Shown: positions 42,470 through 64,000, numbered from the stretch's first letter. The stretch is DNA of 64,000 nucleotides from an uncultured delta proteobacterium (GCA_963810935.1 CAWEPK010000007.1:352001-416000); one strand, 5' to 3'. Notes: a model not told the origin generated them from the sequence alone. Translations and numbers: made by a program.

Positions 42470-43578
42470 TCACCCCTCCTCTTCCCCATACCTGCTTATC
42501 AGCGGATGCCCCACGTTCACCATGATCTTCTTGGCATAGAGCGGGTCGTTCTGCCTGAAACCCCCGTACTGGACGGCCTCTGCCAGCTTCCGGGGGTCGG
42601 TCCTTGTCTCTGAGTCGAACAGGCCCGTATATCCCGGCGTGTTCCTGAAGTGGGCGATGTAGTCCTTAAGGCTCTCTTTGTAAGACGGGTAGGCGCGTAT
42701 GGTCCTGCCGTTCGCCTCCATCGTAGGCCCCCTCCAGTCTCTTCCCGCCTCCAGGTTGAAGAGGTTGTTGCCGTCCATCCGTTTGCCCCAGCCTGTCTCG
42801 GTAGCAGCGTGGCCTATGATGAAAGGCAAAGAGAGACCTGTCCTCTCTGATACGGGCTTTGCCTCGTTATAGACGTCATCTACGAAGCCGAGCATGTCCT
42901 TTGTCGTATAGGGTTTTGCGACAGATTGGTCCGCGTCCGCGGACGGGCCATGTTCGTACTGCGTGACGGCTTCCTCAGGTTCGGGAAGCGTGGAAGGCAT
43001 GTAGGGGGTAATTTGCACGTCTTCGGGGGACCGGCCAAAGCCGGGGTCGGGATCGTAGGCTTTGCGCCGCCGACGGCCCGTTGCCGGGTCAACGGTATAA
43101 TCAGGCATCGGTAAAGGACCGGTCTTGGGCAATCCGCGTGATTCCCTTTCATCGAACCATGCCTTTATGTGATCGGGCAGCAGCCGCCAATCCCTTCCGC
43201 CGGGGCGAGAAAAGTCATAGACGCCGTCGTAGTCGTCATCATCGTCTTCCACCTCTCCACTGTAACTCATCCGGCTCGCTGCTGTTTCCTGCGGAGCCGA
43301 GGGCTGGGCATCGGCCGCTCCTCCTCCCGGTGCGGGGGAAGACTGCGGGGCGGGTGCAACGGAGGAAGGGCTGTATGGGCCGGGCTCATAAGGAGGGAGG
43401 GGCTCAGCACCTTGAGCGGGGACAGAATTCACGGGTGGTTGGGGCTGGCTGCTAAACCCGTGGTGTTTGGCCGGATCAACGGCGGGAACCTTGGACCACC
43501 CCATGCCTCTCTGTTCCTCGGAAGTGATAGGCCGCACTTCGATATGGACGTGGGGGCCGGTGCTTTTCTCGCCCGGCG
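42470..43578 (-). CDS. 3' part of IS-interrupted M23 peptidase/glucosaminidase (FlgJ-like) gene
   Basis: STGPHVHIEV (M23 HxH), Pro-rich linker, HAATETGWG, NNLFNL, RAYPSYKESLKDY, DPLYAKKI. Confidence 0.8.
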
Positions 43579-43676
43579 GGTAGTGTCCTAATTTGATTGG
43601 GGGAGGGGTGGGGAATGGCACGGGAGTTGCCCAAGTCCGATAACCCACATTTTTTTAAATGTCAACGGTTTTTTTC

Positions 43677-43705
43677 TTGACATTGCCTGCTTATAATAGT
43701 AAGTT
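43677..43705 (+). promoter_or_regulatory. Sigma70-like promoter facing the DUF3800 3' end
   Basis: TTGACA-17 bp-TAAGTT. Confidence 0.55.
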
Positions 43706-43711
43706 ATCAAT

Positions 43712-43787
43712 ATCATATAGGTTTTGGATCGGGGTGTCACTCGGTCGGCAGGGAGCCTCTCACAATGAGAGGCTGCCTGTTTATTTA
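43712..43787. ncRNA. Candidate DUF3800-associated structured RNA
   Basis: Hairpin AGCCTCTCA-CAA-TGAGAGGCT followed on the minus strand by GCCGACCGAGTGACACCCCGATCCA, which resembles (from memory) DUF3800 RNA motifs. Promoter and U-tail suggest + strand transcription. Confidence 0.6.
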
Positions 43788-61119: not shown

Positions 61120-61120
61120 C

Positions 61121-62557
61121 ATGGACCTCAAGAACAAGCACTGCCTGGTTTACGACCTGGGGCTTTTCACGGAGAACGCCCTGCGCCTCGTGCGCGACTG
61201 CGCGTCCGGCACGGGCTTCCTTAAAAGCACCTACACGGATTCGAGCGGTACCGTGGTCAACACGAACCCCGTTATTCTCGACGCGAACGGGGAGGCCGAT
61301 GTCTGGCTTTCGGGCTACACCAAACTTGTTCTACAGGACGCAAGCGGCGTGCAGGTCTGGACCGTCGATAACGTTTCATCCATGCCGAACACCGCGCCGA
61401 CGGGCGTTACGGAATGGATAACGCAGAGCGGCCTTGTTTTCACTTACCTGTCGGCGACGCAGTTCTCGACGCCCGGCGACCAGTCGGCCCTCTTCCAGCA
61501 GGGGCAGCGCGTGCAGGCGACGGTGGCTGAAGGTACGGTCTACGGCACGGTCGAGGCATCGGCTGCATCGGGGTCGCCCCTTACGACGACCGTCACGGTC
61601 ACGTGGGATTCGGGCCGGCTCGATTCCGGGCTTTCTGCAATCGCGACCGGGATCATAACAGCGTCGGCCCATTCATCGCTGCCGGGCGGCTCTACCGGGT
61701 TGCTTACAGGCGAGATGAGGGCTTACGGCGGCGCGTCCGCGCCTTCAGGGTGGCTGCTGTGCGACGGGTCCGCCTGGCCGCGCAGCGCCTTTGCTGCACT
61801 TTACGGCGTGATCGGCACTACCTTCGGGCAAGGCGACGGATCGACCACCTTCAACGTCCCCGACCTGCGCGGTAAAACCCCGATTGGGGCGGGGCAGGAT
61901 ACGCCGCCTGTCTGGGCCTCGGGCGGGGCTTATCCGCCCAATGCGTGCGTCAGGCCCACGGCTTCATACAACTATGTCTACGAGGCGTTGTTGCCTTCCG
62001 CGTGGACTGCGTCGACGGCTTACGCCCTCGGCGCGGTGGTCACGGCCACGGCCTCCTACAACTACGCTTACAAATGCACGGGAGCGGGCACGTCGGGCAG
62101 CGCGGAGCCCGCGTGGCCCACAACGGCAGGCGGGACGGTGACGGACGGCGGCGTCACCTGGACCTGCATGGCGAAAGATACGGCGGGCGCGACCGAGCCC
62201 GCGTGGCCCACGACGATCAATGCAACGGTCCTCGACGGCTCGGTCACATGGACCTGCCGCGCCAAATGGGCAAACAGGACGCTCGGCGCATACGGCGGGG
62301 CGGAGGTCCACACGCAGAGCACGGCCGAGATGGCAGCCCACAACCACCCGCTTAACGATCCGGCACATTCCCACTATATCGTCCCGCCGTATGGCATCGG
62401 CGGAGGTGTTCCCTGGGGCGGCGGCTCGTCTACAGGGTCAGGCGCCTACCCCACGAATGCAGCCTCTACGGGGATAACGATAAGCAACGCGGGCGGCGGC
62501 CTGCCAATGACTATCATGCCGCCGTTCGCAGTCGTCAACTGGATCATAAAAACGTGA
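61121..62557 (+). CDS. Tail fibre/collar protein with head-binding-like N-domain and CBM-like inserts
   Basis: TYTD...NTNPVILDANGEA, collar motif GWLLCDGS...GDGSTTFNVPDLRG, MPPFAVVNWIIKT. Confidence 0.8.
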   Translation: MDLKNKHCLVYDLGLFTENALRLVRDCASGTGFLKSTYTDSSGTVVNTNPVILDANGEADVWLSGYTKLVLQDASGVQVWTVDNVSSMPNTAPTGVTEWITQSGLVFTYLSATQFSTPGDQSALFQQGQRVQATVAEGTVYGTVEASAASGSPLTTTVTVTWDSGRLDSGLSAIATGIITASAHSSLPGGSTGLLTGEMRAYGGASAPSGWLLCDGSAWPRSAFAALYGVIGTTFGQGDGSTTFNVPDLRGKTPIGAGQDTPPVWASGGAYPPNACVRPTASYNYVYEALLPSAWTASTAYALGAVVTATASYNYAYKCTGAGTSGSAEPAWPTTAGGTVTDGGVTWTCMAKDTAGATEPAWPTTINATVLDGSVTWTCRAKWANRTLGAYGGAEVHTQSTAEMAAHNHPLNDPAHSHYIVPPYGIGGGVPWGGGSSTGSGAYPTNAASTGITISNAGGGLPMTIMPPFAVVNWIIKT

Positions 62558-62564
62558 GGCGCCT

Positions 62565-63146
62565 ATGAAAAGACTTGTTTCAGCTTTTCTGATTATGGCG
62601 GCCGTCATGACGGCCGCATCGGCGCGGGCAACCGATTGCTACACCTGGAATGCTCAGACGGGCGCGTGGCAGTGGAACCAGAACTGCGGATCGCCCCCCA
62701 ATGTCACCGGCAATATAACGGCAGCGGCCGGGAAGAGCGTTGTCTTCAGGAACACGCTGACGGTCACGGGTAACGACGGCGCGACCCTCAACATTGGCGC
62801 GGGGGGCACGGTCAACCAGTTCATGACCGGCTCGTCGCTCGTGCCGGGAAGCGCCTACTGCCTGGGTGCGAGCGCGCTCGCTCTCGCGCAGGCGGACAGC
62901 CTCTCCACCTTGCCTGCGATTTGCATCGCCAACAGCGCGACTACGTGCCTGACTACGGGGACCTATCAATTCCCGTTCTCGCAGGGTTTTACCCCCGGTG
63001 CGCCCGTCTACGTCAGCGACAGCGCGGCGGGGGGCCTTACGCAGAGCATCCCCGCATCCGGCCACTATTTGCAGGCGATCGGCACGGCCACTGCGGCCGA
63101 TACGATAATCATTCAACCTATCCCCCTAACAGGAGGTCTTCAATGA
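62565..63146 (+). CDS. Phage structural-like protein with signal-peptide-like N-terminus
   Basis: MKRLVSAFLIMAAVMTAASARA; FTPGAPVYVSDSAAGGLTQ..P...Q.IG.A cement/decoration-like motif. Confidence 0.6.
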   Translation: MKRLVSAFLIMAAVMTAASARATDCYTWNAQTGAWQWNQNCGSPPNVTGNITAAAGKSVVFRNTLTVTGNDGATLNIGAGGTVNQFMTGSSLVPGSAYCLGASALALAQADSLSTLPAICIANSATTCLTTGTYQFPFSQGFTPGAPVYVSDSAAGGLTQSIPASGHYLQAIGTATAADTIIIQPIPLTGGLQ

Positions 63147-64000
63147 AGAAAGTCCTTGTCATTTTTGCACTGCTCGCTTTTGCAATCAGCGCCTCGGCCG
63201 CCACGATCACGACGATCAACGGCATCCAGATCAACGCGAGCTACTTAAACGGCGCGTCGGTGACGGCCTCGCAGGCCGCCATCAGCACCAACGCAAGCGG
63301 CCAGATCATCCAGACGCCCTCCCAGACGGCCAACACATTCTTGGCGGCCCCGAACGGCAGCGCGGGCAACCCGTCTTACAGGGCAATAGTTGCGGCCGAC
63401 ATACCTTTCGGAGCGCCTGGAGCGATAGGCGGTACGACTGCAGGCAGCGGGGCATTCACTACATTATCCGCATCCGGCGTGATTACGTCTACGGTTTCCA
63501 CAGGAACCGCGCCCTTTACCGTAGCCTCAACTACCCAGGTCGCTAACTTGAACGCGGCCACCGCAGGACGGCGGGTGGATTAACCGGTACGCCAAACATC
63601 AGTGTAGGCACCATTGGCGCTTCTGGCGTAATTACTTCCACCGTGGCGACAGGTACCGCCCCATTTACCGTCTCATCGACCACTCAGGTCGCAAACCTCA
63701 ACGCGGCTACGGCAGGTAGCGCGGCTAACGGCAGCGAGTGCTACGAACGCCACGAACGCCACATACCTTACGGGTACAACTTCAAACAGTATCCCTTACC
63801 AATCGTCTATTGGTGTGACCAGCTATGTTACCCCCGTGAACAATGCTCTGCTGGTGACAAACTCATCGGGTGTACCGGGGGAGCAAACATCTATACCCGG
63901 CAACGTCACAGGCAGCACGGCATCTGCGGGCGACAACTCGACCAAGCTCGCGACTACTGCGTACGTTGACGGCAAGACGGCTTATACGAACCCGGTCGGC
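63143..64000 (+). CDS. Tail-fibre-like repeat protein, frameshifted near 63570 and 63730, runs off window
   Basis: AGGAGG RBS, MKKVLVIFALLAFAISASA, FLAAPNGSAGNPSYRA, two copies of TGTAPFTV.STTQVANLNA. Confidence 0.65.

Follow-up and report, generated by a model that had tools for sequence, protein, structure and literature searches.

A P22-like virion operon with an unlinked switch in a Syntrophorhabdales family: a candidate domesticated podoviral particle with packaging like that of gene transfer agents

A P22-like virion operon with no phage early genes at its side could be what is left of a prophage, or it could encode a particle run by the cell, and the locus described here raises this question. 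The window that we analysed is a stretch of 64,000 nucleotides from an uncultured delta proteobacterium (G000:C7:352001-416000; the source genome, here labelled G000, is 93% complete), and the named records of relatives assign the host family, one of soil bacteria, to Syntrophorhabdales. The initial annotation had proposed a long-resident, host-controlled podoviral module, perhaps a gene transfer agent (GTA), and had considered a decayed or permuted prophage equally possible. Judged from sequence, long residence with inheritance by the host is borne out by synteny, tree congruence and purifying selection, whereas the second is not supported for the family, given the synteny, the single copy and the congruence. 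The operon and an unlinked regulatory switch are host-inherited under purifying selection, and we are confident that they form a host-inherited multi-locus element. Our preferred reading, to which we give a probability of roughly 0.55, is that this element is a domesticated podoviral particle with GTA-like DNA packaging, derived from a P22-like phage grounded in the ancestor of three genera. The split loci and the promoter copies suggest that a phage has been domesticated by the cells as a means of packaging cellular DNA.

The virion and lysis genes form a single rightward operon from 49427 to approximately 66511 in window-equivalent coordinates, i.e., 2.5 kb beyond the window edge, in the order terS, terL, portal, scaffold, coat, gp4-like, gp10-like, two small genes, gp7-like, a 254-aa gene, tail genes, lysin and holin:

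49330..49419, + strand: operon promoter; five 13-bp TGTCAC repeats (49330-49395) abutting TTGACA-17-TAAGCT, with the ATG 7 nt on
49427..49756, + strand: small terminase-like gene (terS); no PHROG or Pfam match; C-terminal LIVRIVRFSE strand
49743..51193, + strand: large terminase (terL); phrog_2 (E 2.6e-12) and phrog_2472; two +1 frameshifts at ~50452 and ~50933; intact in L127 and L129
51187..53331, + strand: P22-like portal; PF16510 (E 3.5e-161)
53333..54020, no strand: portal-scaffold intergenic insert; repeat family 1 (53333-53500), two GTGACA arrays (53519-53615), a terminator-like hairpin (53788-53832) and family 2, resembling repetitive extragenic palindromes (~53900-54015)
54110..55120, + strand: scaffolding protein; phrog_8865 (E 1.2e-19)
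55124..56380, + strand: P22-like coat; PF11651 (E 1.8e-37)
56439-57173, + strand: gp4-like adaptor; phrog_12985/637
57187-58698, + strand: gp10-like head closure; phrog_578 (E 2.9e-101)
58695..59499, + strand: 81-aa conserved gene and 184-aa gene; no family match; the latter "acetyltransferase-like" by position only
59501..61119, + strand: reduced ejection module, gp7-like (278 aa; phrog_598, E 1.9e-23) and second protein (254 aa)
61121..62557, + strand: deletion fusion of an ATP-grasp-like N-terminus and a collar-bearing tail fibre (PF07484)
62565..64000, + strand: more tail and receptor-binding genes (phrog_12121), with tail genes continuing to G000:C7:417045
C7:417240-418511, + strand: lysis module of small membrane gene, lysin (phrog_873, E 8.5e-21), 121-aa gene and holin (PF09682)

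PHROG and Pfam profile matches along the operon agree with the P22-type morphogenesis order claimed initially; the order stood but its completeness did not, since the ATP-grasp-like gene is cut and joined to the tail fibre. The operon TerS, whose orthologs in relatives are 57-91% identical, has no DNA-binding domain or helix-turn-helix (HTH) detectable with PHROG or Pfam. The base composition is indeed host-like, with a GC content of 0.643 vs 0.583 for the genome and a third-position GC content (GC3) of 0.81-0.85 vs 0.80-0.85 in mnmE and yidC. The slot of the 184-aa gene corresponds to that of an annotated acetyltransferase in the phage PBR31.

Single-copy orthologs of the operon were found in 11/22 genomes of the one Syntrophorhabdales family. 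The coat gene occurred in 10/61 genomes, at one locus each (G000, G002, G008 and 7/7 of genus g2), and the portal, 67-87% identical in 10 relatives, added G001 (87%) to the coat carriers, while G014 had only a 52% portal fragment, which we took to be unrelated. Class-wide, the P22 coat was detected in 11/96 genomes, one of these being a weak outside match. Ten genomes of g3, g4 and g5 (73-98% complete) yielded no operon, and neither did G003. The possibility, raised initially, that close relatives lack the cluster did not hold, as relatives carry it. Among the 10 genomes with a visible left flank, eight from two genera (G000, G001, G004, G009, G012, G015, G017 and G019) have the operon adjoining the same gene; the left flank of G021 was outside this count, and the right flanks differ between genera. 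This conserved left anchor is:

39886..41020, - strand: RlmL-like methyltransferase; single copy in G000, 64% identical to the G015 ortholog, N-terminal match to NF008748 below cut-off, frameshifted in the assembly

A virion tree was built from portal, coat, gp4 and gp10, with 10 taxa in common with the rpoB tree; G001 was represented by portal only and G015 and G019 by portal and coat. The two trees had 6/7 splits in common, which was equalled by 0/100000 label shuffles. The ratio of nonsynonymous to synonymous substitution rates (dN/dS), calculated pairwise by the Nei-Gojobori method with frameshifted stretches skipped, was 0.08-0.32 for six virion genes vs 0.04-0.09 for rpoB, and between G000 and G004 the dS was 1.1-1.6 for virion genes vs 1.2 for rpoB. 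Vertical transmission, which the available text of PMC9662315 gives as a criterion for GTAs, is indicated by the synteny, the common splits and the single copy. Purifying selection without an integrase or attachment (att) site was likewise found, with the exception of G002, where recombinases are adjacent.

As the initial annotation had stated, there is no integrase at the locus: 0/8 of the tyrosine-integrase matches in G000 are on contig C7, serine recombinases gave no match in the genome, and no tRNA or tmRNA att site was found in the window. Nor did an integrase or early genes turn up beyond the right edge, where the holin is followed by a CAAX protease and then by the host genes mnmE, jag, yidC and rnpA. 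Its statement that there are no early genes is true at the locus, but a repressor, a replication initiator and a small HTH gene lie 72 kb to the left of the window on the same contig:

C7:278049-280170, outside the window and ~122 kb from the operon in G000: switch, consisting of a cI-like gene, a replication initiator and a small winged HTH (wHTH)

In L130, a contig from IMG/VR, an HTH gene is found upstream of an array-terS-terL operon, with cI, wHTH, array and terS unsplit. Orthologs of this gene (60-72%), the cI-like genes, are present in 12/12 array-bearing genomes, and in 1/10 others at 50%; a free phage with the same cI is represented by one IMG/VR contig only. The cI-like protein combines HTH_3 with a weak S24 domain, in which the aligned region lacks the serine expected for catalysis in what we take to be the usual motif, so that RecA-dependent self-cleavage is improbable. 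Divergent from the cI-like gene are the replication initiator (Rep; phrog_1408, E 2.9e-35) and the wHTH, which is found in exactly the 11 genomes with an orthologous portal. Host genes surround the switch, and a reading by eye of the open reading frames (ORFs) for up to 10 kb around it in nine genomes revealed no integrase; in G001, G009, G012 and G019 it lies near the same acyl-CoA dehydrogenase. Within g2, the dS of the switch genes tracks that of rpoB (G004-G017: 0.23, 0.30 and 0.48 vs 0.25), with a dN/dS of 0.05-0.37. Because phage early genes are kept at an unlinked locus, the system is not a bare structural cluster. Induction in a small subpopulation under host control, as expected of a GTA, would here involve regulators of phage origin. 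An AbiEii-like nucleotidyltransferase gene (labelled by eye) is located beside the switch at G000:C7:276243-277295 and also in G002.

A single promoter type, in which an array of short direct repeats abuts the -35 element, stands in front of the operon and of several other units. The initial annotation had assigned the operon its own promoter, and TTGACA-17-TAAGCT is indeed present at 49391-49419, though a consensus scan did not list it; the operon probably has a leaderless start at 49427. A second array, inverted relative to the first, belongs to a promoter facing left, and the initial annotation had mentioned neither array:

48993..49080, - strand: leftward promoter; five 13-bp TGTCAC-type repeats (49016-49080) abutting TTGACA-17-TATCCT

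An array is found upstream of terS in 9/9 relatives whose terS region was examined. Copies of the array end were counted in the 22 family genomes with one mismatch allowed and the reversed sequence as control. There were 3, 4, 1 and 3 copies in the g1 genomes, 4 in G008, and 10, 11, 12, 14, 24, 46 and 62 in g2; none was counted in the remaining 10 family genomes or with the control, and exact array matches were absent from all 74 genomes outside the family. Besides the operon, arrays head wall-hydrolase cassettes, a TerS-like HTH gene and, in g2, cassettes that contain no gene. The array-driven hydrolases are an M23-glucosaminidase in G000 and G001 and a lysozyme-like gene, which lies behind an array in 4/7 loci. 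The co-occurrence, the position and the fold class make the wHTH a candidate for the protein that binds the array and activates. The cI-like protein is still a candidate array binder, because G003 keeps cI and arrays without the wHTH. For the wHTH itself there was no useful sequence match in PDB, no Foldseek match at E <0.001 and only weak HTH matches in Pfam; its nearest Atlas neighbours are a "phage regulatory protein" and HTH_17, at 0.94. The alternative of the arrays as Rep iterons is disfavoured, as they persist without Rep (G001, G015, G003 and L130) and keep a fixed distance to the -35 element.

The gene-less cassettes of g2 are ~450 bp in length, with a sharp left edge. In G004, 22/24 sites were examined, of which 16 contain GTTCTTTGACAA, an element that we take to be boxA-like (0 on the opposite strand), and 16 contain CGTCCAC-type repeats (2 on the opposite strand). 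These repeats are also found 5' of the HTH gene in G008 and, in a variant form, in G003. A cassette that is present at one locus in G004 and G009 is displaced by 2.4 kb in G012 and unmatched in G017 and G008. Cassettes at five loci had 0 Rfam matches at E 0.5, and a transposon is not indicated, as no terminal inverted repeat was seen by eye and the one locus compared offered no clean empty site. Toxin-antitoxin-like small genes were read by eye within 2.5 kb of ~10/22 of the G004 sites (L075-L090). A cassette is located directly upstream of rpsB-tsf in L068 (G012) and L084 (G004), where induction could drive or disturb a core operon, and another 5' of a tRNA-like sequence in L043. A third array and promoter in G000 (C12:224788-225020) precede a 10-codon ORF resembling the start of terS and a 20-codon remnant, followed by low-GC DNA with an AAA-like gene (features labelled by eye); this looks like a deleted regulon member. 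Pairs of tyrosine-recombinase genes end at most ~200 bp from the left edge of the array in G002 (L028:17336-19252) and G004 (L087), and farther upstream in another G004 locus (L090); the pairs may be an array-targeting element.

The TerS-like HTH gene, which is unlinked to the operon in relatives, has small terminases as its best PHROG matches (E down to 7e-8) and is usually followed by a gene for a protein of 60-66 aa. An array lies upstream of the HTH gene in 12/13 close copies and in 0/7 distant ones. The operon TerS has no HTH match, but relatives carry an unlinked TerS-like HTH, which bears on the small terminase without sequence specificity that is expected of a GTA. The 65-aa protein has a strand resembling the C-terminal LIVRIVRFSE of the operon TerS. 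When modelled as a complex with TerL, both from G008, it scored 0.82 vs 0.01 for the best of three controls; the mark applied was attained by 116/157 solved and 2/215 mismatched pairs, counts that are approximate owing to the use of our own alignments. The runs agreed in at least 69% of contacts, the partner pLDDT (predicted local distance difference test) was at least 72, and residues 20-30 of the 65-aa protein, which form the strand, were placed on TerL residues 9-15. The model supports docking of the 65-aa protein on the operon's TerL, although it may echo solved TerS-TerL contacts. The dN/dS was below 1 for both genes (0.13-0.38 for the HTH and 0.27-0.78, from few codons, for the 65-aa protein). 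No integrase or replication gene was seen within 1.5 kb of the 13 close copies or within up to 10 kb of three, both read by eye. Neither the HTH gene nor the right-hand repeats were found in G000 at its 93% completeness.

These parts could work together as follows. A P22-like temperate phage would have been grounded in an ancestor common to three genera within one Syntrophorhabdales family. Lifting of repression by the cI-like protein would allow expression of the wHTH, which would bind the repeats head-to-tail and turn on the regulon. TerL would then package chromosomal DNA by the headful, followed by lysis. Packaging might start non-specifically through the HTH-less operon TerS, or at specific sites through the unlinked HTH and its TerL-docking peptide. 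If the heads held as much as those of P22, with its headful of 43 kb, one head would not span the ~122 kb between switch and operon in G000.

A more specific variant of this mechanism, which we put forward tentatively and regard as unlikely, is that dozens of dispersed cassettes serve as packaging starts at 10-60 chromosomal sites, a form of lateral transduction run by the host. The wHTH would activate the ~450-bp cassettes, each with its array, promoter, boxA-like element and CGTCCAC repeats, and the gene-less cassette would correspond to the leader of the TerS-like HTH gene. The HTH would bind the CGTCCAC-type repeats, and the 65-aa protein, mimicking the C-terminal strand of TerS, would dock TerL and start a headful series, while the window lineage would have lost the adaptor and most of the sites. 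If this were true, the system would be neither a random-packaging GTA nor a prophage.

Part of the damage in the window copy is apparent and part is real. We considered contigs from four short-read runs of one study, which represent near-identical strains (the same individual is unproven). The terL frameshift at 50452 was absent in 3/4 runs, the fourth having no such row, and the one at 50933 was absent in 4/4. Because rpoB and the rlmL-like gene are likewise frameshifted in the G000 assembly, assembly error is a likely cause, and genuine terL frameshifts, to which the initial annotation had attached importance, are unlikely; they are probably assembly errors. A 1-base difference at 49461 in 3/4 runs opens the terS frame from 49427. 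In contrast to the frameshifts, the fusion at 61207 is a real deletion. The cut in the ATP-grasp-like gene falls after residue 29, and the frame continues with residue 36 of the tail fibre; three IMG/VR contigs with a coat 90-91% identical (L127-L129) carry both the 416-aa ATP-grasp-like gene and the tail fibre intact at this site. The protein had no Pfam or PDB match, and its label is based on Atlas clusters with GARS_A on 32-42% of their members. Both alleles seem to exist, because the contig from one run spans the joint unchanged and that from another departs from the window sequence after 61208.

The left flank is more complex than the divergent two-gene unit described initially, as an insertion sequence (IS) of the IS1 family splits the M23/glucosaminidase gene:

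42470..43578, - strand: hydrolase gene, 3' part (glucosaminidase domain; PF01832, E 1e-13)
43579..47334, no strand: IS1-family element of 3756 bp; 13-bp perfect terminal inverted repeats, 8-bp target duplication, GC 0.475; PF03400 and PF12686, NF033558 below cut-off
43785-44525, - strand: DUF3800 passenger of this element
46012-46836, + strand: IS1-family transposase within this element
47335..47694, - strand: hydrolase gene, 5' part (M23 domain; PF01551, E 8e-17)
47735..48908, - strand: broken gene, probably a secreted partner upstream of the hydrolase; signal-like N-terminus by eye, one PD40 repeat

The product of 42470..43578 matches, at 54% identity, residues 180-525 of a 526-aa M23 and glucosaminidase protein whose gene is unsplit in G001. 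The IS1-family element is no part of the particle system; its passengers across 43785-45668 are the DUF3800 protein and two unknown ORFs, and a transposase 46% identical to that in the window is encoded at C12:422494-423303. The "beta-propeller" of the initial annotation comes down to the one PD40 repeat, which was matched (E 9.8e-5) and is the sole basis for the label, in a broken ORF. The contig of one run has a 1-base difference in this ORF, at 48612, and short-read cover was low or nil over 44000-49300 in all four runs. Further to the left, a 238-nt direct repeat (73%; 38134-38371 and 39002-39239) lies between two adjacent paralogous host genes. The two host repeat families reported between portal and scaffold are confirmed, with 53 and 5 loci in G000. 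In environmental contigs the internal spacers of family 1 (53333-53500) vary, and the GTGACA arrays at 53519-53615, with a period of 12 bp, occur in G002, too. The portal-scaffold gap is an insertion hotspot, with unrelated inserted genes in G002, G008, G009, G019 and G021. Most g2 genomes and G008 have a 550-aa gene family and a 72-aa gene 3' of the coat (L021:774-2717 in G004), which have no clear family match and are absent from the window and L127-L129.

Several observations weigh against a domesticated particle with GTA-like packaging. The window copy is eroding, with a tail-gene deletion, an IS insertion and no adaptor identified; it may no longer yield working particles, and on balance it is probably crippled. 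In genus g1 the cluster is decayed or lost: G002 is truncated, G001 lacks the coat and has a foreign ejection set, and none was found in G003; genus g5, which branches from within the carriers on the rpoB tree, is without it in 3/3. G002 and G008 have other left flanks, and in G002 two tyrosine recombinases sit immediately upstream of the array. G001, G003, G015 and L130 lack Rep, and the match to it is only partial in G009 and G019. The cI tree is poorly resolved and groups G003 with G008. The model of the wHTH is of low confidence (pLDDT 63) and its nearest folds are weak, mostly Xis/MerR-like; the neighbours, EcmrR among them, include RppC (Z 3.3), RdfS (3.0), Nu1 (2.9) and BldC (2.6), with no Z of 5 or more. 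Between G004 and G017, virion-gene dS was 0.39-0.95 vs 0.25 for rpoB, and because this is a 1.5-3.8x excess, exchange with outside phages is likely. Module swaps were also seen in G001, G009 and L130; taken together, the tree congruence, the elevated G004-G017 dS and these swaps indicate that the operon is vertical at depth yet still swapping parts. At the same locus in G001 (C2:2704000-2723000, L093), terS-terL-portal is kept while coat, gp4 and P22 gp10 are absent; there are also a different tail-tube fragment, at least three large internal-protein-like genes (labels by eye) and a lysin and holin resembling those in the window.

A further point against it is the ejection module. The window has two ejection proteins and no third large one, whereas three would be expected of an intact P22-like prophage; three internal proteins are annotated in PBR31 and inferred from position in PAE2. 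In 9/12 loci, gp7 and the ATP-grasp gene are separated by a slot of 0.45-0.9 kb; it reaches 1.7 kb in one locus, while G009 and L210 have 2.9-3.0 kb. According to the available text of PMC8954989, podoviral ejection proteins are required for infectivity. Because the slot is reduced, most members could fill heads but not inject, unless an unlinked gene supplies the function; a search with a G009-type 485-aa query, which had no positive control, found no unlinked third protein in any of five genomes. The reduced ejection module weakens the claim of a GTA more than that of domestication.

The reduced module is also an argument for the leading rival, which nevertheless strikes us as improbable: a domesticated particle that does not transduce, with heads that may be filled with host DNA but cannot inject it, serving as a killer, a decoy or a device for lysis and release of extracellular DNA, like PBSX. 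The co-regulated wall hydrolases would then possibly be payload and the secreted partners immunity. The third ejection protein is absent and the second cut to ~110-255 aa in the same 9/12 loci, with a dN/dS of 0.3-0.47 for the stub; the hydrolases are array-driven, several lysozyme-like genes have a secreted-looking partner 5', and PBSX does not inject its DNA, as the available text of PMC12946183 has it. However, terminase, portal and the candidate adaptor are under purifying selection, which would be costly if the DNA were irrelevant, and the lysozyme cassette is present in 6/22 genomes only, one of them without the system. An unlinked, diverged ejection gene could also still exist, as the one query was run on five genomes without a match.

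Decidedly doubtful is a second rival, in which the element is grounded yet selfish, an old prophage maintained by recombination with, and complementation by, related podophages that come in, with cassettes that are leftover ends or resemble miniature inverted-repeat transposable elements, and with little gain for the host. The elevated virion dS within g2, the module swaps, the 41 related loci in IMG/VR, the variable presence of a cassette among close relatives at one locus and the repeated loss in g1 and g5 are consistent with it. Against it speak the deep host-tree congruence and the fixed site, as well as switch genes that evolve at the host rate; no means was found to move switch and operon together, and the close IMG/VR matches mostly start at the operon or within it, as would be expected of trimmed chromosomal regions. 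An ordinary prophage, recent, decayed or permuted, with its early half deleted, is highly improbable: the right end does lie just one gene away from the 3' end of mnmE, where islands are known to insert, and the window copy has local damage, but the same left anchor in two genera, the one copy per genome, the tree congruence and the host-like GC3 already contradict it.

Among known systems, the P22-like podophages PBR31, PAE2 and P26218 have a coat 36-40% identical and the same portal, coat, gp4, gp10 and gp7 families in the same order. They are contiguous genomes of 36-40 kb with early genes, an integrase in PAE2 and three internal proteins in PBR31 and PAE2. Compared to an intact P22-like prophage, the portal, coat, gp4 and gp10 families were found here, but a contiguous integrase and early genes and three ejection proteins were not. 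The mechanism of TerS from Staphylococcus aureus pathogenicity islands (SaPIs) and of Rpp proteins underlies a second comparison. As in packaging redirection by phage-inducible chromosomal islands (PICIs; RppC structure 6hn7), a small unlinked protein is predicted to engage a phage terminase and might alter the choice of packaged DNA; in contrast to PICIs, the close HTH copies stand alone behind a host-inherited array, and it is the host chromosome that would be targeted. In L111, a distant homolog of the TerS-like HTH is found beside a helicase-like gene, in a context that looks satellite-like by eye.

The FpGTA of Faecalibacterium, as described in the available text of PMC12946183, is likewise multi-locus and genus-wide and is probably podovirus-like; its operon combines a terS that lacks an obvious DNA-binding domain with terL, portal, scaffold and capsid genes. 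FpGTA I, of 10.5 kb, has tail and lysis genes in a second operon and packages ~8.5 kb, and its particles have been shown (same source). Here, by contrast, the particle is predicted from one P22-type operon of 17-24 kb, accompanied by a retained cI/Rep/wHTH switch, an unlinked HTH adaptor and dispersed cassettes in a Gram-negative host. In the BaGTA of Bartonella, a phage-derived replication and regulation locus is separate from the capsid locus and acts upstream of it; one phage regulator, a Q-like antiterminator, links the loci, and one region undergoes run-off replication (available part of bioRxiv 10.1101/2024.11.20.624540). A separate locus of this type was found here (Rep with the cI-like gene), but the virion is of the P22 type, a Xis/MerR-like wHTH acting on direct repeats is the candidate regulator, and some genomes do without Rep, which is absent in 3/12 carriers. 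BldC and D29 Gp36, both small and MerR-like, form oligomers on direct repeats (available text of PMC5859096 and PMC12266134). D29 Gp36 represses, as stated in the latter, while the sign of control proposed here comes solely from the array being upstream of the -35 element. The Desulfovibrio Dd1 particle likewise comes from an anaerobic deltaproteobacterial host, and a short-tailed particle would be expected here as well; the Dd1 genes are not established, and the genes for the Desulfovibrio particles are still unidentified according to the available text of PMC12946183. Podovirus-like GTAs (same source) and split replication and capsid loci (BaGTA) are thus already in print, while searches of open-licence text gave no report of such a system in Syntrophorhabdales or of dispersed packaging cassettes with a split adaptor. 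The system would work like a GTA and is a candidate member of that class.

Few GTA-like systems are known outside Alphaproteobacteria, and the present analysis provides a candidate parts list for one in Syntrophorhabdales, comprising a virion operon, an unlinked switch, a promoter motif, a candidate activator and a modelled terminase adaptor. The family displays stages of domestication side by side: unsplit in L130, split and amplified in g2, eroding in g1 and not found in g5. If the dispersed cassettes are indeed packaging starts, they would represent a new way for a cell to select which parts of its genome travel.

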